Part shown: piece by piece, positions 3,870-26,737 of the stretch
How positions within the stretch are numbered: position 1 is the stretch's first letter
Layout of the letters: the number at the start of each line of letters is the position of its first letter
Origin: Chloroflexota bacterium
Lineage (GTDB): Bacteria; Chloroflexota; Ktedonobacteria; Ktedonobacterales; Ktedonobacteraceae
Direction: 5' to 3'
DNA length: 55,911 nucleotides
NCBI GenBank assembly: GCA_046726655.1
Contig: JBKPAZ010000029.1
Location: 1-55,911 of the forward strand
Position numbers and translations under genes: made by a program
The notes under the pieces: generated by a model
Told to the model about the DNA's origin: nothing
Databases searched by the model: none
The model's input: only the letters and a program-made list of their open reading frames with translations

Positions 3870-6800
3870 TCATTCCTCAAGTGGATACATTTTCACTACA
3901 GAACCATACATCATTTCCGGTGTCTGGACATAAGCAGAACCGATAGAGAGTTGTTCAATACGTTCAGAAAGGTCTTGTCCTTGACGTCCACGGATGAAAC
4001 CTGAAGCCTTGCGCGACTCAGGATAATTCATGCGGAAGATGACTTTGGTCCCTGCATTACCAAGTACATCCGGGTGAAAGTCTCCTATTCCCTGGCTTGC
4101 AACAATGACCGAGATGCCAAATTTACGTCCCTCTTTCATCAACTTAGGCAAGGTGATATCTTTAGCAAGACGATGAGCTTCATCAAGCACAACTGCTAAC
4201 CGAAGCTGTTTCGCGTATCCCCAACGGAACATATCCTTATAGAGTTTGCGTAATACAAAAGCTCCAGCAGCCATCTGTAGTGTTTCTGCAAACAGATTGT
4301 GTAGATCAATAACTAACCCGCTACGTACAAGAGACAGTAGATCTGCTGATTGTTCTGTTGGACGGAAGAGATCCATCTCCAGTAGTGGGCGGCAACGAGC
4401 AGCAACATTAGTAACATGACGTGTTTGCTCATTTTGCTCAATCCGCTTCAATACATCTTTGAGTGTGGGATAATCCAGCATTTGTAGGGTAGCTATATCA
4501 CTATCATTATTAAACCCGCGCGCCTTATAAGCATCCCTAACTGATGTATAGACAATATCTTTCTGCATCTCACCAAGCCCGGCCACATATGCAAAAATCT
4601 CAGCTACCGCTAATGCATTCGCCATCCATCCTCCCTGTCCACCTTCTCGAGTGCATTCAAAAGGTGAAAATGGAAGCCCTTTCGCAGCGTCAAGCACACC
4701 TGGCTGGATCGCTTTTGTAAAAGTACCCTGTGACTCGGCAAACTGTCCATGAAAGTCCAGGACAAGCGCGGGGACATTTTGCCGCCCTAGTTCAGACAAT
4801 ATACGTGTTATTGTCCATGATTTTCCTTGTCCAGGGATGCCAAGCATGAAAAGATGTGGGCTGCCTTTCACTCCAGGATTCCAGTCCACCTGTTCACCCA
4901 AAGCTTCACCTAGAGGGATAACAACCTCACTGGTATCGATCTGATTTTGAACATCTACAGTCTCGATAATGGAAGTCACCGGTTGCTCATCATGCTGAAG
5001 AGGCTTTGTTTTTTTTCCATGCCCTACAAATTCTCCTTCAGATATATTCGATTGTATCGCATTTGGATCGGGTTGTTGTTCCTCAAAAGCAGCAATGTCT
5101 GTCCAGCTTTGCCCACTCACAGAGCGAGACAGAGTAGGAAAAAGTTCTGTATCATTTTCAAAATCTCTGGCAGTAAGTACAACGACCTTTGCATTGTCAA
5201 GCAATAACGGTTTCCGTGGCTCACTATCCAGACTAACAATGTATCCCTCATAGGTTGGCCTGAAGTCCAGGCCCGTTTTTTCTAATCTTGTGACATGTTC
5301 CAGGAAAGAACCCTCGGTATCGGGATCAAATAAATTGTAGCGGCGAGAACGCTCGAAGTAAAAGCGAAGCACATTTGCCAGATAGGAACGTTGCAGGGCA
5401 CCATCTATACGGTTTTCGTTAAAAAAGCGATTCTTCACCGCTTGCGCTGATCCCTCCATCTGTAAGACCATGGCTTGCGCTAACTCCTCAAGTGGCACAC
5501 GTCCTCTCCTCCATTTTACTTCTATAAAGATCGCATCCACGATGTTTCGTTTCAATGAAACAAGCACAAGATCACAGCGTCTCTCTCCGCGTGTTGGCTT
5601 GCCGGAACTATCCTGCGAGAAGAGGCGAGGATAAATATCTACTGGCACAAGGACAGCCTGCCGCAGCTTTTTATTTCTTTGCAACCATGCAGTAACTACA
5701 CCCAATCCCACTGCCGCCGCCGCACTGGTTGAGGATTCGAGCGCATCTAACGCAAGACGCCCAGAGATCGTTTTCAAGTGATGGAGCAAGCGACTTACAC
5801 TCTGATCAATGCTTGCAAAACCGAGGTCATCCATTGCCTGGCCAAGTAAGGAACCAATCTCTTCATGCCATGCCGTTGTGACCATCATACGATGCCCAAG
5901 CCCCTCCGTAAATTCTGGCGAGTAATCAAGGACATACTTACGAGCAACTTCATTAAGGCCCGGCTGATTGGGAGAATCATAATAGTCAAGAGTGAAAAAA
6001 CGATCCAGGGTAATAACCCAGTTCGTATTTACATGCAGACGTTCCAGCAAGTCGCGCCTTTTTGCTTCAAGACGTACTTCTAGTACTGGTCGAGTATCAG
6101 AAGGACCACCCAGCAGATAACCACCTGCATTCAGCAACGAGGTATGTAATTCCATCAGCGTCTCACTATACCTGGGACCAGCAGGATGTGGCTCCGGTTT
6201 CCTTACCCCTTCTGTAACAATGCGATGTCGCCAGAGCAGCTCCTCATTATTCGATGTGAATTGTGAGATAAAGCGATTGACCAGCCCATAGAGTGAGAAG
6301 CTACTGGTATCGCTCCCTGTTGTATCCAACGATGGAGAGGAGGCAACAATAGAGGGCCGGGTGAAATCCGTCACTACCGCGATATGTGCTTCTGGCGGCG
6401 CGGTTTTCTCTAATTGACTCATTGCGCGGGCGGTCGTTGTCAATCCGGGAAGGAAGTGATCAGAGTTCCTTGCGTAGCGTTGATCGATTTGCTGCTGGCG
6501 TACCTGCTCCAATGCTTGAAACGTACTTTTATGTTCATCTTCGGCATAGGAGATAATCTGAAACGCGGGGAGAGAATACATTTGCTCAAGCTCACCGGCG
6601 GGAGTTTTCTCGGAAAGCATTTTCTTTATGGCTTCTGCAAAGAAGTCGCCCCGGTCAGGGTTGATAAGTGTGGTCACAAGTGTCTCGGCATAAGGATGTA
6701 GCTGATGAAATTTCGCGAGGTGTTCCGCCAATTGATCCGGTTGAATGTCACCGACACCTACCTGGTCAATACCAGTATCTAGAATTACAGCAATATCTCC

Positions 6801-10631: not shown

Positions 10632-13600
10632 CTATTGCACCCTCACTCGCACAATTTTATTATCACGTTGGGTAACAAGATGAACGCGGCGCTGATTTTC
10701 AATTAAAACCAGGTCACGAGTTTCACGTAGCAGTAGAACATCTTTGAAGAGTTTCAGGTCTTCAAGTAGTGGTTTAAATTCTGGTGCTGTAGGTTGCAAT
10801 CCATCGGCCATTCGCATAAGTAGCTCGAACAGGTCAATGGTAATCTCAAGGCGTGGTAGACCAGAATAATGCTTTAATACGACCATCTCAGGCAGCCTCT
10901 CGACCATAGAAATACCCTGTGGATGCTCTACCAGGAACTCAAATTCCTCCAGGGGAAGTTGTTTGAGGACAACCAACTGCTGATCAATTGAGGCGCTGAC
11001 CTTCACACTGAGTTTTCCTTGGGGCACATCTTCTATGACACCATCCGAACGCAGAATGCCGAGGATTACTACTTCGCGGAGTTTTCGCACCTCCACATCA
11101 TCAAGACGTCCATCAAGCAGCATCATGAAGAGTTTAGAGTATTCGTATGGGAGCAATGCCAACCAGCGCACTTTCGGTATAACAGAACCATCCTGAGCAG
11201 CCACAACAGGTTTACCAGCATCAAAGTACAAACGCCGTTTGAATGCTGCCATCCACGTAGGTTCGTTCTCAAAGCGTTGAAAGGGGAGATCTTTTTTATC
11301 GGCAAAGAGAAGGCTGCGCTGTTCAGCATCCCTCGCAGTTTGATGAAAATGCAGGAAGCGATCAAGGTGCGGATGCGGGAAACGCGCGGGGTCGAACGGC
11401 ATTAGATCAGCCAGCAATTCATCATGTTGTTCAATCGGAGCAAATGCAGATTGCCAGTAAGCAAAATTTATGAGCGATGCGCCTGCTTCTGCTCCATGTC
11501 GCGCAGCATGCACTTGTTCACAGCTCCAGTTACCAGTAATCAGATAAGCAAGAGCCGAACGTAGATCACGCATGGTAGTATGCCGCTGTCGTCGTAGATG
11601 CGAGAGCAAGAAGAGAAACTCAAGGCGTTGTATGACTCTTGGTTTTCGTAGTTCGAGAGCGTTATTTCTCAAGGGACAGACCACCTGGGCCGCGCAATCC
11701 TCACAAATCTTCCATTTGTCGGCTGCGACCAGACTTTGCAACACTTGCCGGAAAACAGAATCTCCCTCCGCATCCGGTAAACTTACAAAGGCCCGCTTTT
11801 TCAGGTCTATGACCCATACGTCTAGCTCTTCTACATCACTGGCATCTCTTGCTTTCTCTAGCTGCACTGATAGCCAGGGGAAACGATCTTGATGACGTAT
11901 AAAATAGTCAGCGAGACGCCCATCGTTGATAGCGATCAGTACGGTCAAATTGACAGCAGGTTCATTGCTCCCTTCCAACCCCTGCAGTTTCCCGGTGAGT
12001 TGTTGGTCCGCACTTAGACTTTGATGTGATTCTGATGCATCGTAGCAACTGCGATAGTGGTGTCCATCCCATTCCCATTCCCATCCACTCGAATCTTGTT
12101 GAATAACCGTTGCCTGTTGTTCCAGCAACTTTTGCTGCACCTTTTCCAGGAAGGCCGTTTTTCCATCCCCTGGGTTTCCACAGAGGAATACCACTTTTGG
12201 CCTCAGATCAAAAATGGCAGGTAATAACTGCTCATCCAGCGCGGTAAGTACATAGGTTTCCCGCACAAATTCTGAATCCAATCCCCGGTTGTTCTTATTA
12301 CCTATTTCACTATTGCGATAGAGACTACGTACATCATTCACCCAGGAGTTGGTATACTCTCGCAAAGCTTCTGTCTGTAGTGGTTCTTCGACAGCCAGAA
12401 GAGCCGTTTGGAGTTCTTGCCGCATTTGAGCAACAGTAGCTGGACGCTCAGTTGGATTATTTGAGACCGCTCTTAACAATACTGCCGCTATTCTACGCAT
12501 CTTTACATCTATAAACTGCTCCAGCGGGATAAGGCTCCGTTGAACGCCTTCTGTAATACTAAAGGGCATATAGCCAAAAAGCGATTTAAATAAAACTACG
12601 CCAATTGCATAACGATCACACGTCAAAGGAAAAGCAGAAGAAGGAGAAGCCGAAAAGGTCTCCGGGGGGAGATACAGCGGAGTCCCAGCAGCCTGGCCTG
12701 GAGTGCCCTGCCGAATAGCAAAGCCAAAATCGATTAGTACCGGACGATTGTCAGCCTCACGGAGAATAATATTTGCCGGTTTAATATCCCGGTGAAGCAG
12801 TTGTTTTTCTTCGAGTGCTTCTACCGCATTCAATAAACCCTGTGCCAATGACCACCAGCGTTCTAACGGCCAGGGAAACTCCATCTCAATCTGTTGCAAT
12901 GTCGGACCAGCAATATACTCCATTTTGACATGCACATCATTTTGTGGCGGATAAATATCAAAAATACGCGGCAGATATCTGCTACTGATGTTTCTCATAG
13001 CGTTAAACTCAGCGGCAGCCTGCTGCAACACCTCTGAAGGACTGATGTACTGTTTCAGAGCAAATAAGCCGAGTGACTCAAAGTCATTATCACTCGCAAG
13101 ATAGGTGTATGCTGTTGTTCCACGTCCAAGCAAACGATGTACTCTGTAACGCTTATCAAGCAATCTTCCCTCGACCGTGTCGGCTTGTATTTCTATGCGC
13201 AGACGACGAGCAAGATCATTAAGGCGTGTAGAAATTTCTTTTGCTGAAGGAGGCGTTGTTCCCTTTGCAGGAGTGACGACCTGTCTGAAAAGCGCGCCGA
13301 GTTCGTTCGCCAGTTCGGCAGAGAGAAACGAAGTCCAACGTGGTTGTTGGGGAAAGATTACATCACTTTCCACATTGGCACGAATATTGGAGAGCGAAAC
13401 ACCTGATAGACGTTCCAAAAAGACCAAGGCCAGGCTATATGTATCTGTTTCGGCAGTGGCATAGCCATAGCCAATAGCAAGCTCTAAAGCAGCATACGGG
13501 TCTTCGATAGAAAGAGTATCGAGTGATGGAGCAATAGAGTTTGTGCCAACACGAGCGGCGTAAAAATTTGTAAAGACAACTTTGGGTGGTTGAATACTCT

Positions 13601-13949
13601 GAACATAAATCGTGTCTGGCCCAATAGCTCGGTGCAAAACGTTATGAGTATGGATTTGATCTAGAGCCTTAAAACAAGCAGCGGTCAATAATAGTTCTTG
13701 TACAAATTCCTCGCGCGTCTCTGGCTGGGGATAGATACTCAATGGTTTTCCGGATGGAGGCATAATCGGCAAGACGAGAAAATCATCAGACCACCTGAAA
13801 GGAATATTGACCAGAGGTACAAAACCAGTTGAAAATAATTTTTGCAAGGCCATACATTCATGCATATAAAAATCATAAAGCTTCTGTGAGTCAAGCGGGT
13901 CTTTCGTTAGATCATATACCATCAATTGGAGCGTCTTGTCCGGGCCCAA
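10632..13949 (-). CDS. Tandem pseudokinase plus Hanks-type Ser/Thr kinase fused to a C-terminal P-loop NTPase (DptF/DndF-like module)
   Basis: 1105 aa. Kinase: LGRGTTAYTY (G-loop, about aa 274), FALKQY, LLHRDIKPANIIL (D388), LIDFGFA, GTPLYLPPE. N-terminal degenerate copy: LHRAIGPDTIYV, TNFYAARV. C-terminal half: Walker A FLCGNPGDGKTAF (K597) and C749-x2-C752-x5-C758. The annotated start is TTG; see the upstream ORF at 13922-14032. Confidence 0.7.
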   Translation of the reverse strand: MGPDKTLQLMVYDLTKDPLDSQKLYDFYMHECMALQKLFSTGFVPLVNIPFRWSDDFLVLPIMPPSGKPLSIYPQPETREEFVQELLLTAACFKALDQIHTHNVLHRAIGPDTIYVQSIQPPKVVFTNFYAARVGTNSIAPSLDTLSIEDPYAALELAIGYGYATAETDTYSLALVFLERLSGVSLSNIRANVESDVIFPQQPRWTSFLSAELANELGALFRQVVTPAKGTTPPSAKEISTRLNDLARRLRIEIQADTVEGRLLDKRYRVHRLLGRGTTAYTYLASDNDFESLGLFALKQYISPSEVLQQAAAEFNAMRNISSRYLPRIFDIYPPQNDVHVKMEYIAGPTLQQIEMEFPWPLERWWSLAQGLLNAVEALEEKQLLHRDIKPANIILREADNRPVLIDFGFAIRQGTPGQAAGTPLYLPPETFSASPSSAFPLTCDRYAIGVVLFKSLFGYMPFSITEGVQRSLIPLEQFIDVKMRRIAAVLLRAVSNNPTERPATVAQMRQELQTALLAVEEPLQTEALREYTNSWVNDVRSLYRNSEIGNKNNRGLDSEFVRETYVLTALDEQLLPAIFDLRPKVVFLCGNPGDGKTAFLEKVQQKLLEQQATVIQQDSSGWEWEWDGHHYRSCYDASESHQSLSADQQLTGKLQGLEGSNEPAVNLTVLIAINDGRLADYFIRHQDRFPWLSVQLEKARDASDVEELDVWVIDLKKRAFVSLPDAEGDSVFRQVLQSLVAADKWKICEDCAAQVVCPLRNNALELRKPRVIQRLEFLFLLSHLRRQRHTTMRDLRSALAYLITGNWSCEQVHAARHGAEAGASLINFAYWQSAFAPIEQHDELLADLMPFDPARFPHPHLDRFLHFHQTARDAEQRSLLFADKKDLPFQRFENEPTWMAAFKRRLYFDAGKPVVAAQDGSVIPKVRWLALLPYEYSKLFMMLLDGRLDDVEVRKLREVVILGILRSDGVIEDVPQGKLSVKVSASIDQQLVVLKQLPLEEFEFLVEHPQGISMVERLPEMVVLKHYSGLPRLEITIDLFELLMRMADGLQPTAPEFKPLLEDLKLFKDVLLLRETRDLVLIENQRRVHLVTQRDNKIVRVRVQ

Positions 13950-14032
13950 CTTGCGGGCAGTTGTTGTAGAGCTTTTGCAGCTCTGCGCTCTCCTTCAGTT
14001 GCAAATGGCCCCGCGCTAACCAACTGAGCCAT
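13922..14032 (-). CDS. 36-codon ORF with strong SD overlapping the kinase gene start in another frame (leader peptide, or true N-terminus separated by a frameshift)
   Basis: GAAGGAGAG-N5-ATG at 14032. Translation by hand: MAQLVSAGPFATEGERRAAKALQQLPASWARTRRSN*. The kinase ORF is in the -1 frame relative to it and is open from codon 13 of this ORF. Confidence 0.3.
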   Translation of the reverse strand: MAQLVSAGPFATEGERRAAKALQQLPASWARTRRSN

Positions 14033-15039
14033 GGAATCTCTCCTTCTCGACAGAGGCTAAATATGTACAGAAATCCTGGCATATGTCTTATAGTTCGCTC
14101 ATTTTCTAGAGCATCAAATGAATTTTTATAAAAAATTCAGCTATACAACGAGCAGAACTATATCATATTCAGCACTTTCATTCAAGCGTAAAGAGGATAG
14201 TGGGATAGTTGCCATATGTCCAATTCTATGAGTTGGATTTAGCATATCTCGTTGTACTGGATGCCCAAAAACATCTGAATCCTTTGAGAGGAAACTGTTG
14301 GAGATCTACTGAAGAGCTAATATGATTCCAAATATTTTATTGTTTTAGGATTGTCGGCTATCAGTGCGGTTAAACCCTCCTCGTTTCGGTATGAAAACGG
14401 TCTATTTTCTGCAAAACAATAGACTCACTAATCTTCAGGACCATCGGATAAGTGACAAAAGATGTATACTTTTCAGAGAGGCCACACCATTACGAAAGCC
14501 GTAGAGGAAGAAATAACCGATGCGACTCGAAAGCTTCATACAACAGCATGCCCACAGAGATGCACAGGCCCTCTTTGCCGAGCATCAACAAGACCAATCC
14601 GTCCGAGAAGAGCCAGAACGTATACGCAGCCTCGCAAAATTCGAGGCCAACCAGTTCTACCAGCACGGATTTGTCCTTCTATTCCTGAAAGCCTCGCTTC
14701 TGGGCAATGAGCAGGAAGTTACAAACCTTTACACACAAACCTTTATCAAGACATACACAGGCCTCAAGAATGAAGAATACATATCCCAACCCTGATTAAG
14801 ATAGCTCGACTTGTGACATCACTTTAGAAAACAGATGTAACATACAAAAAACATTGTGTACACAAGCAACCAATGCTTGTGCTTAAAAATACCGTGCACG
14901 ATGAGCGGTATGTGAGCGGTATTTTCGATAATGAAGAGAAAAATGAAGAGCAATACCGTTGAGATAATGAGTCGAATGTTCTTGTTGTGGTTATCTTCAT
15001 CGATCAGAATCGGTTCTATCATGAGAAGCAGATCACTGA

Positions 15040-16248
15040 TTACTTTGAGGAACCTCTACGCGAGAGATTCTCGACCATCCAGCGAGCTACCGTGGCATTG
15101 ATCTCCCCAGGCACAGGTTGCGGTCCGTGTGGGAGACCCCTGTGATGAGCGGCCAGGTATGCGAGCGATTGAGCCTGTAAAGCGAAACCTAGATCCATCG
15201 TCTCTATTGGATTGCCTCCGCCACCTGCGAGGTTAAGCATCTCACCCTGGGCGAGCAGCGTAATACGCCTTCCATCTTCAAGTGTGAAAAGTTCGACCCA
15301 CTCACGGAAGCGTTCAACGGTAACCGCCCTCCGTCTTAGTTCAGCGAGGTCAATCTCCCATGAAAAATGACCTGCATTCGCAAGAATGGCCCCATCGGGC
15401 AAGCGGTTAAAGGACTCAGCGGGAATGGCTCCTGGTCTTCCTGTCGCAGTGAAGAATACTTCGCCAATGCCTATCGCTTCCTCAAGTGTTGTGACACTCA
15501 TCCCATCCAGTACCGCCTCAAGCGCCCGGATTGGGTCTAATTCAACGACCGTCACCTGACCACCTAACCTGCGCAGACAGCGTGCAATACCGCGCCCAAC
15601 TGAGCCGTAGCCAAAGACCACGAACCGCTTGGATTGTACTAACAAGTTCGTCTCACGCATAAAGCCCTCGACGATCGTTGGTCCAACCCCATGCTCATTC
15701 TCCATAATGAGCTTGAGCGGACTATCATTGATCACGATAATAGGGAATGATAGTGCGCTGCGCAGTTCTCCCCGCAAGCGGTTGGCACCGGTCGTTGTCT
15801 CCTCGGTACCGGCGATGACATGGCCTCGACCTGGATGAGTAAGATAGGTCGCGACGAGGTCAGCTCCGTTATCCAGGAAGAGATGTGGATCATACGACAA
15901 TACCTGACCTATATTCTCTTGATGTCTGGTGCTATCGTCCTCCTGTTGTCCAAAGACAATGACCCCGGTATGCTTTAGAGCGGCTGCAACATCGTTCTTC
16001 GTCGTACCTGGACTGCCGGTAATGACAACTTTAGCCCCTCCTGCTTGCAGGACAGAACAAAGCACTGCCGTCTTAGGTTCGACATGTAAGCACATGCCAA
16101 TTGTAAGCCCGGCGAAAGGCTTCGTCTCGCTAAACTGTTCCCGCAGCCTCTGAAGGAGTCGCTGATGGAGTTCGGCCCAGCGAATCTTCTGAAAGCCTTG
16201 CGCCACTAGATGATGATCAGGAATGCCCTGATCTTGTTTATCGATCAT
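15040..16248 (-). CDS. ahcY: Adenosylhomocysteinase (short, about 400-aa type)
   Basis: 402 aa. NAD-binding VVFGYGSVGRGIARCLRRLGGQVTVVELDPIRALEAVLDGM and GHFSWEIDL, matching SAH hydrolase family patterns. Confidence 0.7.
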   Translation of the reverse strand: MIDKQDQGIPDHHLVAQGFQKIRWAELHQRLLQRLREQFSETKPFAGLTIGMCLHVEPKTAVLCSVLQAGGAKVVITGSPGTTKNDVAAALKHTGVIVFGQQEDDSTRHQENIGQVLSYDPHLFLDNGADLVATYLTHPGRGHVIAGTEETTTGANRLRGELRSALSFPIIVINDSPLKLIMENEHGVGPTIVEGFMRETNLLVQSKRFVVFGYGSVGRGIARCLRRLGGQVTVVELDPIRALEAVLDGMSVTTLEEAIGIGEVFFTATGRPGAIPAESFNRLPDGAILANAGHFSWEIDLAELRRRAVTVERFREWVELFTLEDGRRITLLAQGEMLNLAGGGGNPIETMDLGFALQAQSLAYLAAHHRGLPHGPQPVPGEINATVARWMVENLSRRGSSK

Positions 16249-19843: not shown

Positions 19844-20617
19844 ATGCCCACATTAGAACTTGAGACCATTCGCTGCGAACTTGATGGAAACCTGGGCCGA
19901 CTGCGCCTCAATCGACCAGAAGCCCTCAACGCCGCCAACTGGGCATGGGTACAGGACCTGGTTACCGCTACCGACTACTTTGCTCAGAGCCAGGAGACTC
20001 ACGTGATCATCGTCAGTGGCGAAGGTCGTGCCTTTTGCAGCGGTCTTGATAAAAAAGAGTTGTCTCAAGGCAACCTTACTCGTGAATGGTTCGCAACCTG
20101 GGAAAAAGGCGTCACTGGACTGGCTAACCTTGATGCCATCACCATTGCCGCTATTCAGGGTTTTTGTCTTGGTGGTGGGCTGCAAGTTGCCCTGGCATGC
20201 GACTTACGTATTGCCACAACCAATGCCATACTCAGCATCCCTGCCGTTAGAGAAGGACTCGTTGCTGCTCTCGGTCCCATGCGGCTCGCCAGGATCATTG
20301 GAGTTGGTCCTGCTAAACAACTCTGTTTCTTAGGTCACCGTTTTACAGGTGAAGAAGGATTGGCGCTGCGCATTATTCATGAGGTCTGTCCACCTGAGAG
20401 CCTCGAAACACGCTCGCTGGCAATGGCTGAAGAACTCCTGAGTATTCCCTTTACAGCGCTTAAGCACACCAAGCGCCAGATCGACCGCTCCTTCGACCTG
20501 GATTTTGAGACACTCATGGCTGAATGGGTTGATGCCGCTGATGATTGCCTGCGTTCGCCTGAGCACCAGGCAGTCATGGAGGAGTATCGCGAAGAGTTAG
20601 CCCGGCGTGACAAATAA
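19844..20617 (+). CDS. Enoyl-CoA hydratase/isomerase (crotonase) family protein
   Basis: Start at the ATG after AGGAG. GEGRAFCSGLDKKE and GFCLGGGLQVALACDLRIA. Confidence 0.8.
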   Translation: MPTLELETIRCELDGNLGRLRLNRPEALNAANWAWVQDLVTATDYFAQSQETHVIIVSGEGRAFCSGLDKKELSQGNLTREWFATWEKGVTGLANLDAITIAAIQGFCLGGGLQVALACDLRIATTNAILSIPAVREGLVAALGPMRLARIIGVGPAKQLCFLGHRFTGEEGLALRIIHEVCPPESLETRSLAMAEELLSIPFTALKHTKRQIDRSFDLDFETLMAEWVDAADDCLRSPEHQAVMEEYREELARRDK

Positions 20618-22481
20618 GTTGAGCGAAAAACAGGCGCGCTTGCGCGCTCTTGAAAATCAGATCAAAAGGTTAAAAAGACGCATTGCCATTCTGGACCAAC
20701 GGAGCAATCGTATTGGCTGGCTACGTGTAGCCATCTTTTTTACAGGCGCATTGCTCAGCATCCTGGCTTACTTCCTTGAGGGTTGGTGGCTTTTACTGAC
20801 CGGCGCAGTGCTAACGCTCTCCATCTTCAGCATCGTTGCGTATTTTCATGCCCGCATAAACAGGAGCATTACACGGCACAAAATCTGGATGCAAATCAAA
20901 TCAGCTCACGTAGCCCGCATGAAGCTCGATTGGAGTGGTATCCCTCAGGTACAATTACCAGAATCCCCACCTGATCATCCTTTTGCAACCGATCTCGACA
21001 TCACAGGAAAACACTCGCTGCATCACCTCATTAATACAGCCATCTCATCCGAGGGAAGCCAACGATTACAAGATTGGTTAATGAATACCGCCCCAGACAT
21101 GCAAGTTATTCGCAAAAGGCAGGCGCTTATACGGGAGCTTACCCCTTTAACTATCTTTCGCGACAAACTTCTCATGAAATCTCTGCTCGCATCAAAAAAT
21201 ACAGCCAGTGCATGGGGGGGAAAAACGTTACTGCACTGGCTGAACGAGCAAACTACACCCAAATCGCTACTCCCACTACTATTCATATCCTTGTTCTTAT
21301 CAGTGCTCACGATCACCCTTTTTGTACTGAACATATTTCATCTTATTCCTCAGTATTGGGTATTTATGTTGTTACTAACCATCCTCTTCCTTTTCGTTAC
21401 AAAAAATCAGCGGGGCGATCTTTTTGAGGACGCTTACCAACTAAGAGATGCGTTCGCACAACTCAGTCTCATTTTTGAGTACCTGGAGACATATCGCTAC
21501 GGCAAGAACCTGAACCTGAAAGCTTTGTGCGAACCTTTTTATCAGGATCGCGAACATCGCCCCTCGTCGCTTTTGAAAAAGATCGCTCGCACTGCTGCAG
21601 CAGCCACTTTGCAAAGGAACCTGCTGCTGTGGATCATTGTGAATGTACTGGTACCGTGGGACTTCTACTTTTCATATCGCTTTAATCAGTACAAATCCCA
21701 GATAGCAGCGCGCTTACCTGCATGGCTGAATATTTGGCTTGAGCTCGAGGCTCTTAACTCCCTGGCAAATTTCGCCTACCTGAACCCTGAATATATTCTG
21801 CCCGAGGTCGTTTCTTGTCAAAATCAAGACAACCTACCATTGCGAGTTTGCGACCTGGGGCATCCCCTCATACCAGAGGGGCAGAAAGTCGTAAATGACT
21901 TCGCCATCTATAAACTGGGTGAAATTAACATCATTACTGGCTCAAACATGACAGGCAAAAGCACTTTTCTGAGAACGCTAGGCATTAACCTTTGCCTTGC
22001 ATATGCTGGTGGGCCAGTCAATGCAAGTCTGTTTCAGACCGCTCTTTTCAGGGTGTTTACCTGCATAAAAATTAGCGACTCCGTAACCGAAGGCTATTCC
22101 TACTTCTATGCCGAAGTCAAACGCCTGAAAGCGCTCCTGACAGAGGTTGAATCTGCCAATAAATTGCCCGTTTTCTTTCTCATCGACGAGATATTTAAAG
22201 GCACGAACAACCGCGAGAGGCGCATTGGCAGTGAATCCTACATTTCGGCGCTTGTTGGACAAAACTGTCTCGGCGTAATATCGACACACGACCTGGATCT
22301 GGTAACGTTGGCAGCTAAGTTACCCGACATCAGGAATTATCATTTCAAAGAAGATGTTCTTGATGGAGAGATGGTGTTTGACTACATATTGCGAGAAGGG
22401 CCATGCCCAACGACGAACGCGCTAAAGATCATGCAAATGGAGGGATTGCCTGTTGATCTAAAAGGCCTGAAAGATGAATGA
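20607..22481 (+). CDS. MutS-related protein with an N-terminal membrane region plus MutS domain V ATPase, and no mismatch-binding domain
   Basis: 624 aa. Hydrophobic helices at about aa 35-80 and 215-265. ATPase motifs ITGSNMTGKSTFLRT, FLIDEIFKGTN and ISTHD. Confidence 0.75.
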   Translation: MTNKLSEKQARLRALENQIKRLKRRIAILDQRSNRIGWLRVAIFFTGALLSILAYFLEGWWLLLTGAVLTLSIFSIVAYFHARINRSITRHKIWMQIKSAHVARMKLDWSGIPQVQLPESPPDHPFATDLDITGKHSLHHLINTAISSEGSQRLQDWLMNTAPDMQVIRKRQALIRELTPLTIFRDKLLMKSLLASKNTASAWGGKTLLHWLNEQTTPKSLLPLLFISLFLSVLTITLFVLNIFHLIPQYWVFMLLLTILFLFVTKNQRGDLFEDAYQLRDAFAQLSLIFEYLETYRYGKNLNLKALCEPFYQDREHRPSSLLKKIARTAAAATLQRNLLLWIIVNVLVPWDFYFSYRFNQYKSQIAARLPAWLNIWLELEALNSLANFAYLNPEYILPEVVSCQNQDNLPLRVCDLGHPLIPEGQKVVNDFAIYKLGEINIITGSNMTGKSTFLRTLGINLCLAYAGGPVNASLFQTALFRVFTCIKISDSVTEGYSYFYAEVKRLKALLTEVESANKLPVFFLIDEIFKGTNNRERRIGSESYISALVGQNCLGVISTHDLDLVTLAAKLPDIRNYHFKEDVLDGEMVFDYILREGPCPTTNALKIMQMEGLPVDLKGLKDE

Positions 22482-22582
22482 TAGTACCATTCCAGGCTTG
22501 CATACAAGTTGTTTTTTCAGCTAGAATAACGAGAAACATTATCTGCATCTGTCGAAAAAAGAAGACAAATGAGGAGGTACTC

Positions 22583-22825
22583 ATGGACGATACTGAAATT
22601 CTGAAAAACATTACAGAATTAGTGAACGAGGAACACGAACTGATGAACCTGGCAGAAGGTAGCGGTTTGGATGATTCTCAGCACGCACGTATGAAGGCAC
22701 TCGAGGTCAGCCTGGACCAGTGCTGGGATTTGTTGCGCCAACGCCGAGCCCGGCGACACGCAGGCCTCAACCCCGATGAAGCCCAGGTACGTGATCCCGA
22801 AATAGTCGAGCATTACCAGCAGTAA
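22583..22825 (+). CDS. DUF2630-like small protein
   Basis: 80 aa from the ATG after GAGGAGG. ILKNITELVNEEHELM....LDQCWDLLRQRRA pattern. Confidence 0.55.
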   Translation: MDDTEILKNITELVNEEHELMNLAEGSGLDDSQHARMKALEVSLDQCWDLLRQRRARRHAGLNPDEAQVRDPEIVEHYQQ

Positions 22826-22892: not shown

Positions 22893-24911
22893 CTATACTT
22901 CAGGCCCTGGTAGGTGAGAGACAAGTATATTTTGATTCAACATATTCATCGGCACAATGCCAAATTCAGAAAGCGCTTGCATCTCCAGGTCACTGCTAAA
23001 GAACTGCATATAGGCCTGGAATGCTGCTGAACCATCGCCTTGCGTATAGAAATGCTCAATACTCCAAAACGCATAGGTGCCCTGAAGTAATGTTTGCGTA
23101 CCGGGCGCTACGCCATCGATGGCTAGTATCTTTACACCTGTTTCCTGCGCCACCGCCAGGGGTACATAGCTAATCGCTCCCTGTGTCTGAGAAACTGCCT
23201 GCGCGACCGAAGCAGGCGAGTCCTGCTTGATTCTGATCCCTGCTACATGCTCTGTCACACCATTCAGCACAAATGTTTGAAAAATTGTGGTGATACTGGC
23301 TGCCGTAGGAGGAAGAATGACCGTGATAGCTTCGTCAGAGCCACCCACCTGGGCCCAATTCGTGATTTGCCTCTGGTAGATCTCCTGTATCTCGGCGCTG
23401 CTCAATCCACTCACCTCTACGTCAGGGCTAACAATCAGTGCGTACAGTAATGCTCCCATCGGGTGATCGGTCAGGTTTCGCACGGGGGTAGCAGTTAGGT
23501 CAAAGCCTGCGACATCAATACGGCTATGCTGCAATTTGTTCAGGCTAGCACGGCTTCCATCTGCTTGTAATGAGATTGTCAATCCTGGACAGTGGTTCGC
23601 ATAATCAGTATCGATTTGTTGTAGCAGGGGCTGCAAATTCAGAGAACTATCTAGTGAAAGTGTTCCAGGCGTACAAACGACGGGAGGAGCCCCAGTAGCT
23701 GTGGGAACAACAGTGCCATTTATTATCGGCGTTTGTGATTGGCCTCTTGTGGGCGTGATGTGAACTTGCGGTATAGAGTTGCTGCCTTCTTTAGATGGGA
23801 TTGAAGGTGTTACACCACCTGAAGCAGTCGTAGGGGTAGGTTTGCCCAATTTCGTTCCCACGACGCTTCCCTGACTGTCGCTATGAAACGGGAGACCAGG
23901 AATATCTTGTAGATGCAGTGGCAAGGACGAGAAGAAAAAAAGGGTACCCACCAGTCCAAATAAAACCAGTAAGATGGAGAGCAAAGAGAGGGCACGGCTC
24001 CATGTAAAAGACATTCGTCGTCGAGAACGTATCTCAATGCGGCGTTGAGGTTTGACAGAAACGACAGGTGAGTTATCAGAGGCAACGGCTGCCAGCAGCG
24101 CTTCAGCTAGAGCACTCGCGTTTGGGAAGCGCGCCTCTGGGCTTTTAGCGAGAGCCACGCGTACGACAAGCTCCACTGACTCTGGGAGATCGGGGCGAAA
24201 TTGACGCAATGAGGGAATAGCTTCATTTGCATGTTTCAGAGCAATCTCGCCCTTAGTCTCACCATCGTAAGGAAGCTGTCCCGTCAACAAGCGATAGAGG
24301 AGCACACCTAATGCATAAATATCACTGGCAGGAGAAAGCATGCCAACCACCTGCTCTGGGGCTGTATATGCCTGATTTCCCTCTTCAATTTGCGCTACTA
24401 AGGGATCGAATTCCTGGTGGATTCGCTTCATACTAAAGTTGGTGAGAAGGATATGCTGATCACTTTGTACCAGGACACTTGATGGTTGGATATTTCCATG
24501 TACGATATGTTGTTCATGCACGTATTGTAGCGCTGCGCATAGTTGAGTAATACAATGCACAACCAGGGGCATCTGTATAAAGCGTTCCTGGTTTTCAGAC
24601 TTCTCTAGAACCTGCTCGACCGTCTCTGCCTCTGCAAACTCTGTTACACTAAAGAGCAAGTCATCACCTGCCCCAAACTCGAGCAGAGGCTGTATATGCT
24701 CATGATGGCAATGCCATACTTTCTCCACTTCTGAGGCAAAGTGCTCCTGGAATGCGGTAGGATCAGGAAACGGTGGTCGAAATAAGCGCAACACTACGTC
24801 AGACCCGCCTCGAGTTGTGGGACGTGCGCGATACGTTTCCACCATTCCTTCTCGTCCCAAACACTCAAGCAAAAAATAATTGCCTACCATCACCCCAGCG
24901 AGTTCCACCAT
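22893..24911 (-). CDS. Membrane-spanning pseudokinase fused to a PstS-like periplasmic binding domain
   Basis: 672 aa. The kinase fold has degenerate catalytic residues (VVLRLF, HGNIQPSS, TNFS). One TM helix (ALSLLSILLVLFGLVGTLFFF). C-terminal PBP-like region (ITNWAQVGGSDEAITVI, GAISYVP, YAFW). Confidence 0.7.
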   Translation of the reverse strand: MVELAGVMVGNYFLLECLGREGMVETYRARPTTRGGSDVVLRLFRPPFPDPTAFQEHFASEVEKVWHCHHEHIQPLLEFGAGDDLLFSVTEFAEAETVEQVLEKSENQERFIQMPLVVHCITQLCAALQYVHEQHIVHGNIQPSSVLVQSDQHILLTNFSMKRIHQEFDPLVAQIEEGNQAYTAPEQVVGMLSPASDIYALGVLLYRLLTGQLPYDGETKGEIALKHANEAIPSLRQFRPDLPESVELVVRVALAKSPEARFPNASALAEALLAAVASDNSPVVSVKPQRRIEIRSRRRMSFTWSRALSLLSILLVLFGLVGTLFFFSSLPLHLQDIPGLPFHSDSQGSVVGTKLGKPTPTTASGGVTPSIPSKEGSNSIPQVHITPTRGQSQTPIINGTVVPTATGAPPVVCTPGTLSLDSSLNLQPLLQQIDTDYANHCPGLTISLQADGSRASLNKLQHSRIDVAGFDLTATPVRNLTDHPMGALLYALIVSPDVEVSGLSSAEIQEIYQRQITNWAQVGGSDEAITVILPPTAASITTIFQTFVLNGVTEHVAGIRIKQDSPASVAQAVSQTQGAISYVPLAVAQETGVKILAIDGVAPGTQTLLQGTYAFWSIEHFYTQGDGSAAFQAYMQFFSSDLEMQALSEFGIVPMNMLNQNILVSHLPGPEV

Positions 24912-24913
24912 GA

Positions 24914-26461
24914 TTATCCTCTCATCTGCAATTGGTGTTGTTCTATACTAACCCGTGCCCAGATTACAATCTTACCTGTGTGCATTGCTGTAGGAGCGTA
25001 ATTTATTGCGCCCTCTGCGCCAGTACTACCACGACTGGATGGATCAGGGAAGAAGAATGAAGAAAGGAGCGCAGCAATTAGGCCAATCAAAAGTAAGATG
25101 ACAACCAGAATCGGCAATAACTTTTTCAAACGCGAATCGGAAGCCTTCTCCCTCTTCTTCTGTTCTCCACCAGAAGCAGGCTGCGCTGGCGGAAAAGTAT
25201 TATCTGGGGGCGTTTCAGGAACTAATGGTTTGCTATGCAAATACCCGGTGGCAGTAGATGGCATTGAACCCGCAGTTTCGTTCCCTATGGGAGACCATTC
25301 AACAGGATCTGTTGACCAGAACATATGTGTCCCGCTACCTTCGGTCTCCTGCAAGAAATTAGTCTTGCGGCTCAACGTTCTCTCTGATTCTTTATCGCCC
25401 TCAACAGGTGTAGCCTCAAGCGATGCCTGGTTAAAAGACGGCTCAAAGACCGGAGCAGGCGAATCGGATTGCCCGCCTGGAATGGTAGGGACAGTAGGAG
25501 ACGTTGAAGAAGACTGAGCAACGTAAGCAGGCACTGGAGTCTGCAGACCACCACCTGCAGTAGATGCCTGATTGGGTGTAAGTTGGCGTGTCACCGGTAA
25601 AACAGATTTAGCGACTGGGGAGGCAACGGGAGCAACACTTATCGCCACCGCCAGTGCATTGCTAAATTCTTCCGCGGAAGCAAAGCGATCGTCCGAGCGC
25701 TTCTTTAAAGCCAGGTGTAGCACCCCATCAACAGCATCCGAGATGCTCGGATCCAGCGAACGTGCCGAAGGTACTTGCTGTCGAACATGCTTGAGCAATA
25801 CTTCGACCGGCGTTTGTCCTGTAAAGGGGGGCTGCCCTGTAAGAATGCGAAATAACAGTACACCAAGCGAGTAGATATCGCTGCCTCGTCTTAACACTCC
25901 CAATGATTGTTCTGGCGCTGCATATTCAGCTGAACCCCAGCCAATCCGCGTGAGCGATTGCTGGCTATCGTCATAACCTCGAACAATACCAAAATCGGAA
26001 AGCAGCATACGGCCATCTGCTCCAACAAAGATGTTCGTAGGTTTGATATTGCCATGTATCACATCACTATCATGTGCATATTGAACAGCACTGCACAACT
26101 GTTGCATGATTGGCAATGCCTGCATTGCAGAGAACTTTCCACCAACACGTATCAAGAGATCTTCGAGCGTACCCGTCGTCACGAGCGGTGTAACAGAGTA
26201 AAGGAGGCCCTCACCTTCGCCGAATTCAAGAAATGGCAAAATATTTGGATGCTCAAATTGACCTATTTTTTCCGCTTCGGTCATAAAATATTCACGGAAG
26301 GACTCACGCTGAGCATAGCCAGGACGGAACACCTTCACCGCCACTTCATAACTTCCCTCTCCAGTCTGGCGAGCACGATACACATCCGCTATTCCTCCCC
26401 TACTGATACATTGCAGCAGGAGATAATCACTTAACATTACACCTTCAAGAAGATCAGACAT
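24914..26461 (-). CDS. Hanks-type kinase-like membrane protein with an atypical HGN catalytic loop
   Basis: Start at MSDLLEG. AVKVF (K43), VIHGNIKPTNIF (N138 in place of Asp), LSDFGI, EYAAPE. C-terminal TM helix LLPILVVILLLIGLIAALL. Stop lies 2 nt before the next gene start. Confidence 0.7.
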   Translation of the reverse strand: MSDLLEGVMLSDYLLLQCISRGGIADVYRARQTGEGSYEVAVKVFRPGYAQRESFREYFMTEAEKIGQFEHPNILPFLEFGEGEGLLYSVTPLVTTGTLEDLLIRVGGKFSAMQALPIMQQLCSAVQYAHDSDVIHGNIKPTNIFVGADGRMLLSDFGIVRGYDDSQQSLTRIGWGSAEYAAPEQSLGVLRRGSDIYSLGVLLFRILTGQPPFTGQTPVEVLLKHVRQQVPSARSLDPSISDAVDGVLHLALKKRSDDRFASAEEFSNALAVAISVAPVASPVAKSVLPVTRQLTPNQASTAGGGLQTPVPAYVAQSSSTSPTVPTIPGGQSDSPAPVFEPSFNQASLEATPVEGDKESERTLSRKTNFLQETEGSGTHMFWSTDPVEWSPIGNETAGSMPSTATGYLHSKPLVPETPPDNTFPPAQPASGGEQKKREKASDSRLKKLLPILVVILLLIGLIAALLSSFFFPDPSSRGSTGAEGAINYAPTAMHTGKIVIWARVSIEQHQLQMRG

Positions 26462-26737
26462 GCGACACCCCACAATGGTACGTCTCGGCTGGTAGTTTTG
26501 CAGGCGCAATAGACCGAACCCAACAAAACCTGGTATCGGTAATACATCGAACTAAACGAGGAGAGATTCTCTTTTCGGAGATTTAACAGACTAAGACGAC
26601 AAAAAGAGGCATTTTCTGAATAAGTTCATCGAGGCGAAACTAAAAGTACTATGCAAGCCACAACACCTCTCGCTCCATCTTCACCATCACAGCCGGCACT
26701 TTTTCCGACAATAGACACGCCGCCAGGAGATACCAGA

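Follow-up and report, generated by a model that had tools for sequence, protein, structure and literature searches.

A probable 5'-truncated MAD6, with a pseudokinase-kinase pair fused to a DndF/SspF-type core, in a methyltransferase-less MAD6-MAD7-MAD8 module

What kind of protein joins a kinase-like domain and a complete Hanks-type kinase to a P-loop half, in which company is it encoded, and is the copy at hand still functional? These questions are raised by a minus-strand open reading frame (ORF) of contig JBKPAZ010000029.1 (Chloroflexota bacterium, family Ktedonobacteraceae, assembly GCA_046726655.1), of which a stretch of 55,911 nucleotides (nt) was analysed as a whole and is referred to here as the window. 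We hold with good confidence that the ORF is a truncated MAD6, the F-type subunit of a MAD6-MAD7-MAD8 module in one class with DndFGH and SspFGH. The full order of domains in the family is NERD, pseudokinase, active Hanks kinase, derived P-loop domain with a large helical lid that bears a putative zinc site, and an alpha+beta domain that evolves fast. The window copy is an N-terminally deleted member of this known family. Its three-gene module is likewise known, and here comes without a methyltransferase.

An original prediction, made from the DNA letters and their translations, had read the ORF as a pseudokinase followed by an active Hanks kinase and the F-type P-loop subunit of a three-gene module of the Dnd/Ssp class, and this domain reading holds. 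All of its motifs were recovered at the same residues of the 1105-amino-acid (aa) translation: LGRGTTAYTY (274-283), FALKQY (296-301, with K299), HRDIKPAN (386-393), DFG (407-409) and PPE (428-430) in the active kinase, HRA (106-108) and NFY (128-130) in the degenerate domain, and the Walker A motif GNPGDGKT (591-598, with K597) and C749, C752 and C758 in the P-loop half. It overlooked the predicted NERD nuclease with which the family begins and which is missing from the window copy. The novelty that it implied for a fusion of a Dnd-type F subunit to a kinase does not stand, since the architecture has been published under two names, as MAD6 of the MADS system and as a NERD-kinase variant of DndF (PMC10853773, PMC12839542).

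Family membership and the C-terminal core

The NCBIfam equivalog model for MAD6, NF047741, has 612 positions and a cut-off of 460 bits, and covers the NERD domain, the pseudokinase and the kinase N-lobe only. The window protein matches it with 270.7 bits, residues 5-383 aligning to profile positions 217-611, and stays under the cut-off only because the first 216 profile positions are deleted. Intact relatives score 445, 448, 492, 503 and 508 bits over positions 1-611, and the proteins of Ktedonobacter racemifer, Dictyobacter alpinus and Thermogemmatispora clear the cut-off. The canonical MAD6 proteins of Pseudomonas violetae and Ralstonia mannitolilytica (~1385 aa) reach 754 and 855 bits, and their C-terminal 560 residues align to residues 544-1105 of the window protein (E 1e-59 and 7e-61). 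An eight-gene MADS on a Piscinibacter plasmid consists of a helix-turn-helix (HTH) protein, an N6-methylase, an AAA ATPase, two hypothetical proteins, a 1391-aa “protein kinase” and hypothetical proteins of 557 and 1858 aa, and it is the 1391-aa protein that occupies the MAD6 position of the operon.

The partner genes point the same way. MAD6, MAD7 and MAD8 are encoded together, and the gene order and spacing of the window trio are the same as in MADS loci. MAD7 exceeds the cut-off of its NCBIfam model (NF047733, 475.4 bits against 410, residues 5-558 aligning to profile positions 1-529) and matches the PADLOC models mad7 (E 6.7e-22) and SspG (E 4.4e-4); a sequence search of structures found no solved relative of it. 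In the third protein, which resembles MAD8 and DndH, the nuclease, Walker A and Walker B motifs are at least 93% conserved among 62 relatives, and its matches in the PDB are to HerA and the DptH C-terminal domain (7es4, E 4e-5) only. A methyltransferase hidden in this protein was considered and rejected, as it has no motif IV ([DNS]PP[YFW]) and no Pfam methyltransferase match. The models NF047741 (612 positions of ~1385 aa) and NF047742 (MAD8, 200 of ~1700-1900 aa) cover N-terminal parts only, and annotation based on them is therefore silent on the DndF-like core of MAD6 and the nuclease-ATPase of MAD8.

The published DndF core is a P-loop kinase of derived type, canonical in its Walker A motif and with Asn for Asp in Walker B; it carries a helical lid of ~200 residues (12-13 helices), sometimes with a zinc insert near its start, and ends in a fast-evolving alpha+beta domain without structural relatives (PMC10853773). 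All of these features are seen in the window protein, as judged from alignments and an AlphaFold model of the core (predicted local distance difference test score, pLDDT, 89.3; predicted template modelling score, pTM, 0.89). Residue conservation was counted in 82 diverse full-length relatives unless another set is named, and it shows that the kinase, Walker A and Cys motifs did not match by chance. The second strand (model strand 87-92) ends in D637 (82/82), N675 (82/82) and D676 come after the Walker B strand LTVLIAI, and each of D637, S639, A673, N675 and G677 is present in 80-82 relatives. In the model the P-loop sheet is accompanied by ~14 helices at 189-424 (domain numbering), and C749, C752 and C758, each kept in 80 of the 82, are placed between early lid helices. 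A fourth cysteine, C810, is invariant in a 32-sequence alignment and probably completes a putative zinc site. The terminal alpha+beta domain (436-560 in domain numbering) is modelled with strands at 436-465, 479-493 and 536-560 and helices at 495-530.

Profile searches place this core close to SspF. The PADLOC SspF models PDLC02795/PDLC02796, which have no curated cut-off, match residues 578-896 (positions 48-355 of 560, E 6.4e-30) and 569-1050 (positions 34-503 of 525, E 1.1e-22). The DptF model TIGR03238 gives 16.3 bits against the 50 needed, over the P-loop at residues 585-612 only, and on these alignments the window protein is classed as a superfamily relative of DptF and not as an equivalog. 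The original prediction had allowed that the C-terminal half might prove unrelated to DptF or be a generic NACHT/STAND module; the SspF match speaks for kinship, and an identity as NACHT/STAND was rejected, the Pfam matches spanning ~30 residues of the P-loop only and lying below thresholds.

Several observations weigh against the assignment to a MAD6-MAD7-MAD8 module. The window copy falls short of the MAD6 cut-off, the N-terminus of the third protein reaches 51.9 bits of the 175 required by the NCBIfam MAD8 model (NF047742), and the match to the DptF model is just 16 bits. Relatives encoded without a methyltransferase score ~360-510 bits, near the MAD6 cut-off, versus 750-860 for proteobacterial MAD6; since they straddle the cut-off, they would form a sister clade to the experimentally studied MADS. 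MAD1-5 and the Dnd and Ssp modification genes (dndABCDE, sspABCD) are absent from the 55.9-kb window, and a scan of its ORFs of at least 120 aa detected neither a methyltransferase nor an S-subunit domain. Sequence and fold searches yielded no solved structure that resembles the C-terminal core: Foldseek of the model against the PDB gave nothing at E <= 0.001 and generic P-loop/AAA+ matches only, at E >= 0.027. No published test of kinase activity was found for any MAD6 or DndF fusion, the model of a three-protein complex is drawn by analogy, and the frameshifting deletion described below may have inactivated the gene.

The kinase pair and the deleted N-terminus

Residues 262-535 contain all Hanks signature elements (Gly-rich loop, beta3 Lys, alphaC Glu, HRD Asp, Asn and DFG Asp) and are predicted to be an active protein kinase with a complete catalytic set. 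Pfam Pkinase matches residues 268-481 (E 1.7e-32), and among the 82 relatives K299 is kept in 81, E314 in 77, H386 in 82, and D388, N393 and D407 in 81 each. The preceding domain retains H106 (82) and P111 (81), has a DFG-like Asp in 47 relatives, and at the position of the catalytic Asp carries Ala, Asn or Gly and never predominantly Asp. A profile of residues 10-258 aligns to that of the active kinase from alphaC through the C-lobe, pairing HRA with HRD and NFY with DFG (hhalign 99.94%, E 1.4e-36). The AlphaFold model of residues 10-545 (pLDDT 82.2) has as its best Foldseek matches S. aureus Stk1/PknB (target TM-score 0.75-0.80), and the pseudokinase-kinase pair of TYK2 comes at rank 4 over 559 columns. 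These comparisons indicate that the first domain is a true kinase homologue, a conserved pseudokinase rather than a decaying duplicate, and that the pair is under selection.

The N-terminus of the protein has been altered by a deletion. Relative to the orthologous locus L006, which is 85% identical, 541 bp (3x180+1) are missing, with TGGG microhomology at the junction and a shift of frame. The lost segment codes for the NERD nuclease, a linker and the pseudokinase strands beta1-beta2, as seen from the conserved pattern in 81 diverse relatives, where the NERD PD-(D/E)xK signature is kept at D47 (81/81) and K62 (80/81) and is followed by residues patterned like a kinase N-lobe, namely a loop that contains Gly and a Lys or Arg at beta3 (48/81). 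Close relatives share up to 87% identity, have ~1313 aa and start with the NERD domain PF08378, and those at 85-87% identity hold all four parts: NERD, kinase-like domain, kinase and P-loop core. By this comparison the window ORF is a 5'-deleted MAD6 that would lack NERD and the first pseudokinase strands. The lack of a G-loop in the first domain, which the original prediction had noted, is true of the ORF, and is owed in part to the deletion of beta1-beta2.

A remnant of the original start survives as a short leader ORF, the first 29 codons of which (MAQLVSAGPFATEGERRAAKALQQLPASW) correspond to the N-terminus of MAD6, i.e. the start of NERD (MAQLVSAGPFATEGERKAAKALQQLPANW in the intact homologue P0002), while the remaining codons are frameshifted. 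The leader ends in a TGA that overlaps the main ORF's ATG (TGATG, 13924-13920). This ATG at 13922 is the likely true start, giving the 1096-aa product listed in the protein database; the TTG start at 13949 falls within the frameshifted remnant. A Shine-Dalgarno sequence, GAAGGAG, directly precedes the leader ATG, and no clear one lies in front of ATG 13922. The promoter-like site upstream is weak evidence, since the consensus scan found 5 such sites against 2.9 expected. It is plausible that the NERD-less 1096-aa product arises by termination-reinitiation at TGATG after the leader.

The same TGATG is found as an end point elsewhere. At locus L004 (9351-13294) MAD6 is split into ORFs of 216 (NERD) and 1097 aa, of which the upstream one stops at the same TGATG as in the window, and at L009 (8311-12451) it is split into two overlapping ORFs of 575 and 816 aa; both are metagenome assemblies. 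TGATG is a common end point for frameshifted upstream frames because the sequence CAATTGATGG is conserved. Between the adenosylhomocysteinase gene and the MAD6 leader lies an AT-rich stretch of 1.1 kb (13950-15040, G+C ~0.43), in which no ORF exceeds 91 aa. Searches of it gave neither an Rfam match nor a terminator-like site, and it does not resemble what lies upstream in related loci.

Is the truncated copy still functional? We put its chances at roughly even. The reading on which MAD6 of the window is a dead gene, and the trio a decaying remnant, tolerated or selected in the absence of a protective methyltransferase, comes only a little short of an even chance. The deletion took NERD and part of the pseudokinase and uncoupled the ORF from its start, the ATG at 13922 has no clear Shine-Dalgarno sequence, and mad6 and sspF are essential in their own systems. 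SspFGH is toxic if unrestrained by its modification (PMC8092258), other loci show decay (at L005 MAD7 is truncated and MAD8 missing, and L017 and L022 are in fragments), and the truncation has been seen in this contig only, its product P0001 being a one-member protein cluster. Against decay, the 1096 codons of the main ORF, MAD7 (568 aa) and MAD8 (1678 aa) are all uninterrupted, and the leader retains a promoter-like site and a Shine-Dalgarno sequence, with a TGATG overlap that favours reinitiation. The ratio of nonsynonymous to synonymous substitution rates (dN/dS) against L006, the closest orthologue fetched, is 0.117 for the rest of MAD6, 0.134 for MAD7 and 0.112 for MAD8; this does not discriminate, because a recent deletion would leave no signal, and the likeness across the trio would fit either a recent deletion or continued function. 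Moreover, F subunits without NERD or kinase occur in otherwise complete trios (L007 and loci of Bacteroidota and Chlorobi), and NERD is therefore not universally required.

Relation to known systems, distribution and possible mechanism

The closest known counterpart is MADS, with which the window shares the MAD6 family and its domain order (NERD, kinase-like domain, kinase, P-loop core) and the downstream partners, MAD7 over its cut-off and a MAD8/DndH-like giant ATPase-nuclease. Three genes, mad6, mad7 and mad8, are treated as mandatory in the MacSyFinder model published for MADS (Maestri et al., Cell Host Microbe 2024; preprint bioRxiv 10.1101/2023.03.30.534895). The window differs in lacking MAD1-5 (HTH regulator, N6-methyltransferase, AAA ATPase, small protein and specificity subunit), of which MAD2 and MAD5 give methylation-based self-marking, and in its NERD-less MAD6 and MAD8-like protein, both under their cut-offs. 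Variants of DndF in which NERD as well as S/T/Y kinases of an inactive and an active kind are fused to the DndF core have been described by Rakesh, Aravind and Krishnan (NAR 2024, PMC10853773), and the fusion was described again together with the same NERD, pseudokinase and kinase arrangement in PglW (PMC12839542). These variants have the same architecture, and stand-alone DndFGH likewise has no linked modification module, whereas the window core is nearer to the SspF models (E 6e-30) than to DptF/DndF (TIGR03238, 16 bits) and its NERD is deleted.

SspFGH (Wang et al., mBio 2021, PMC8092258) is likewise a three-gene F-G-H module, with a Walker-A F and an FtsK-like H, and its SspF and SspG models match. 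The SspF PADLOC models of 525-560 positions match the C-terminal half only, with no sign of kinase or NERD, and SspFGH reads the phosphorothioate marks of SspABCD, which is absent from the window. The N-terminal half of PglW (type 2 BREX/Pgl, NF033442) is homologous and has the same order, model positions 323-781 corresponding to window residues 94-528, but the match gives 91.5 bits against a cut-off of 990 and is limited to the tandem kinase region; the C-terminal half of PglW is RNA polymerase alpha-C-terminal-domain-like, winged-HTH and inactive STAND, not a DndF core, and its partner genes are others. Staphylococcal Stk2 and PD-T4-6 have a homologous Hanks kinase (PADLOC PD-T4-6 up to E 1e-43), but they are stand-alone abortive-infection kinases without a pseudokinase, P-loop core or G and H partners. 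In our literature search no paper was found that connects MAD6 with the NERD-kinase variant of DndF as two names for one thing, and nothing that links MADS mechanistically with DndFGH/SspFGH, just reviews that list both.

An exhaustive search with the core (residues 544-1105) recovered 807 clusters (50% identity) at E <= 1e-3, of which 244 reach E <= 1e-30. Among the best 150 clusters most proteins are 1250-1440 aa long and match from residue 730-840, so that the full fusion is the commonest architecture; others are 800-920 aa (kinase and core) or 560-620 aa (core alone). Among species-representative genomes, at least 476 species carry a relative, in Chloroflexota, Actinomycetota, Pseudomonadota, Acidobacteriota, Armatimonadota, Bacteroidota and other phyla.

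Locus configurations were counted in the 47 of the 80 best loci that had enough flank, MAD2 and MAD5 being sought within ~7-10 kb. A fused F subunit with no MAD2/MAD5 nearby, the group of the window, makes up 23 of the 47 (Chloroflexota, Actinomycetota, Acidobacteriota and Armatimonadota), and a fused F with MAD2/MAD5 directly upstream, i.e. canonical MADS, a further 15 (mostly Pseudomonadota, with scattered other phyla). A kinase-less F in the order F-MAD7-MAD2-MAD5-MAD8, with methyltransferase and specificity genes between G and H, is found in eight (L038, L045, L049, L071, L072, L075, L088 and L089; Bacteroidota, Chlorobi and others, including Spirochaetia, Magnetococcales and one metagenome-assembled genome labelled archaeal), and a kinase-less F without methyltransferase in one (L034, an unclassified metagenome bacterium). 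The trio is kept in every examined locus that extends far enough. About half of the well-flanked related loci are thus without the MADS methyltransferase, which raises the question of how the cell's own DNA is spared.

In Ktedonobacteria the trio stands amid varied defence genes, and once adjoins a type 1 BREX system: in Ktedonobacter sp. SOSP1-85 (L001, 2034-20690) an intact trio lies directly downstream of a BREX segment with the PglX methyltransferase, PglZ and BrxL. This layout raises the question of whether the trio may use the methylation of another system as its self mark. At L007 (4923-17986) a kinase-less F of 606 aa, MAD7 and an H of 1700 aa lie beside TraG-like, relaxase and resolvase genes; a mobile element is thus among the vehicles of the module. 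In Pseudonocardia oceani (L037, 6347-11581) the stop-to-stop ORF is 1745 aa long with a MAD6 match from residue 480; the extra length may be an additional N-terminal domain or merely a frame left open in DNA of high G+C.

The MAD6, MAD7 and MAD8 proteins would, by analogy with MADS, SspFGH and DndFGH, act as a single complex. MAD8 would serve both as DNA motor, with its HerA/FtsK ATPase, and as main PD-(D/E)xK nuclease, and MAD7 as a DNA-binding adaptor; the C-terminal core of MAD6 would dock on the complex, bind nucleotide, and sense or regulate. The active kinase, restrained or scaffolded by the pseudokinase, would respond to the detection of foreign DNA or infection by phosphorylating itself, its partners or further proteins, and in intact relatives NERD would serve as a second nuclease. 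In MADS each of mad6, mad7 and mad8 is required for defence (bioRxiv 10.1101/2023.03.30.534895), and in the Ssp system each of sspF, sspG and sspH is required and SspFGH damages unmodified DNA (PMC8092258). Within such a complex the kinase pair may be a regulated licensing switch, the role put forward in the original prediction, or a backup effector.

The second of these roles, in which the kinase is a terminal effector that phosphorylates host or phage proteins broadly when the MAD8 nuclease is blocked by phage inhibitors, while in intact relatives NERD cuts DNA, with abortive infection of the Stk2 or PD-T4-6 type as the outcome, can be entertained tentatively, at clearly less than an even chance. 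For what is fused to the N-terminus of DndF, S/T/Y kinase and NERD included, a role as backup co-effector has been hypothesised in print (PMC10853773), and the same idea has been proposed for the NERD domain of PglW (PMC12839542); the kinase domain shows the PD-T4-6 match given above, and N-terminal fusions are optional, as expected of add-on effectors, in that solo F subunits exist. However, the NERD-pseudokinase-kinase arrangement is the commonest architecture rather than an occasional one, and near-invariant catalytic residues together with a retained pseudokinase are characteristic of tandem pairs under regulation, the JAK kinases for instance.

The licensing role enters a broader proposal that we regard as unlikely, namely that the methyltransferase-less trio is a self-contained, modification-independent defence system in which the pseudokinase-kinase switch licenses the nuclease and motor of MAD8 on infection, and that the NERD-less allele functions through reinitiation. 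The methyltransferase-less trio is the usual form in Chloroflexota and Actinomycetota; were the proposal true, the window allele would show the NERD nuclease to be dispensable. That two genes were joined into a kinase/P-loop fusion by an error of assembly or gene calling, an outcome for which the original prediction had provided in the case of assembly, can be dismissed as vanishingly improbable, for although the protein is split in the metagenome loci L009 and L004, these split cases overlap or abut in a manner typical of frameshifts, and the fusion is found independently in hundreds of protein clusters, among them most of the 150 best cluster representatives, and continuously in the complete or isolate genomes of K. 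racemifer, D. alpinus, Thermogemmatispora, Ktedonosporobacter rubrisoli, Ralstonia and P. violetae and on the Piscinibacter plasmid; those of K. racemifer, D. alpinus and K. rubrisoli are complete. Returning to the truncated MAD6 as we read it, the locus makes no long-standing question newly testable, and its value lies in annotation: it should be labelled a MAD6-MAD7-MAD8 (DndFGH/SspFGH-class) module with a 5'-truncated MAD6.

Features and surroundings of the module in the window

The coordinates of the module and its parts are collected in Table 1.

Table 1. Features of the MAD6-MAD7-MAD8 module in the window; residue numbers of MAD6 refer to the 1105-aa translation.
Feature	Position	Strand	Remarks
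Promoter-like site, TTGAAT-17 nt-TATAGT with upstream TG	14157..14185	minus	Consensus scan; ~125 nt upstream of leader ATG
Leader ORF, 36 codons (MAQLVSAGPFATEGERRAAKALQQLPASW-ARTRRSN-stop)	13922..14032	minus	Other frame than main ORF
Deletion junction	13944..13945	minus	blastn and DNA alignment against L006
MAD6-type ORF	10632-13949	minus	Translation of 1105 aa
Predicted pseudokinase, aa 10-258	13176..13922	minus	About beta3/alphaC to end of C-lobe; HRA for HRD, NFY for DFG
Predicted active Hanks-type Ser/Thr kinase, aa 262-535	12345..13166	minus	G275, G277, K299, E314, D388, N393, D407
DndF/SspF-type core, first half, aa 544-973	11031..12320	minus	Derived P-loop kinase-like domain and large helical lid
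Walker A, aa 591-598	12156-12179	minus	GNPGDGKT, invariant in 82/82 relatives
Putative zinc site, C749, C752, C758, C810	11520-11705	minus	Conservation
C-terminal alpha+beta domain, aa 974-1105	10635..11030	minus	Model secondary structure; few conserved residues
MAD7, G-type subunit, 568 aa	8910..10616	minus	Starts 16 nt after MAD6 stop
DndH/MAD8-like H-type subunit, 1678 aa	3870..8906	minus	PADLOC DndH E 5.4e-36, mad8 E 1.6e-16
MAD8-like PD-(D/E)xK motif, D1112...E1129-V-K1131	5514-5573	minus	
MAD8-like HerA/FtsK-type Walker A, GIPGQGKS	4818-4841	minus	
MAD8-like Walker B, VVLDE	4179-4193	minus	

The module has a G+C content of 0.43-0.48, versus 0.50-0.58 in its flanks, and a search for signs of an island found no tRNA gene and no meaningful flanking repeats. 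A link between the module and the adjacent adenosylhomocysteinase gene was considered and rejected, as none of the related loci examined has this gene. Elsewhere the window carries housekeeping or unrelated genes: a sigma factor, an esterase, a MutS-related protein, two Hanks kinases, a trp operon, BipA and others. The two Hanks kinase genes are adjacent on the minus strand (22893-26509), encode proteins of 672 aa (with a fused periplasmic-binding-protein-like domain) and 531 aa, and are apparently unrelated to the module. At 20607-22825 the MutS-related protein consists of domain V only (624 aa) and is followed by a DUF2630 protein.

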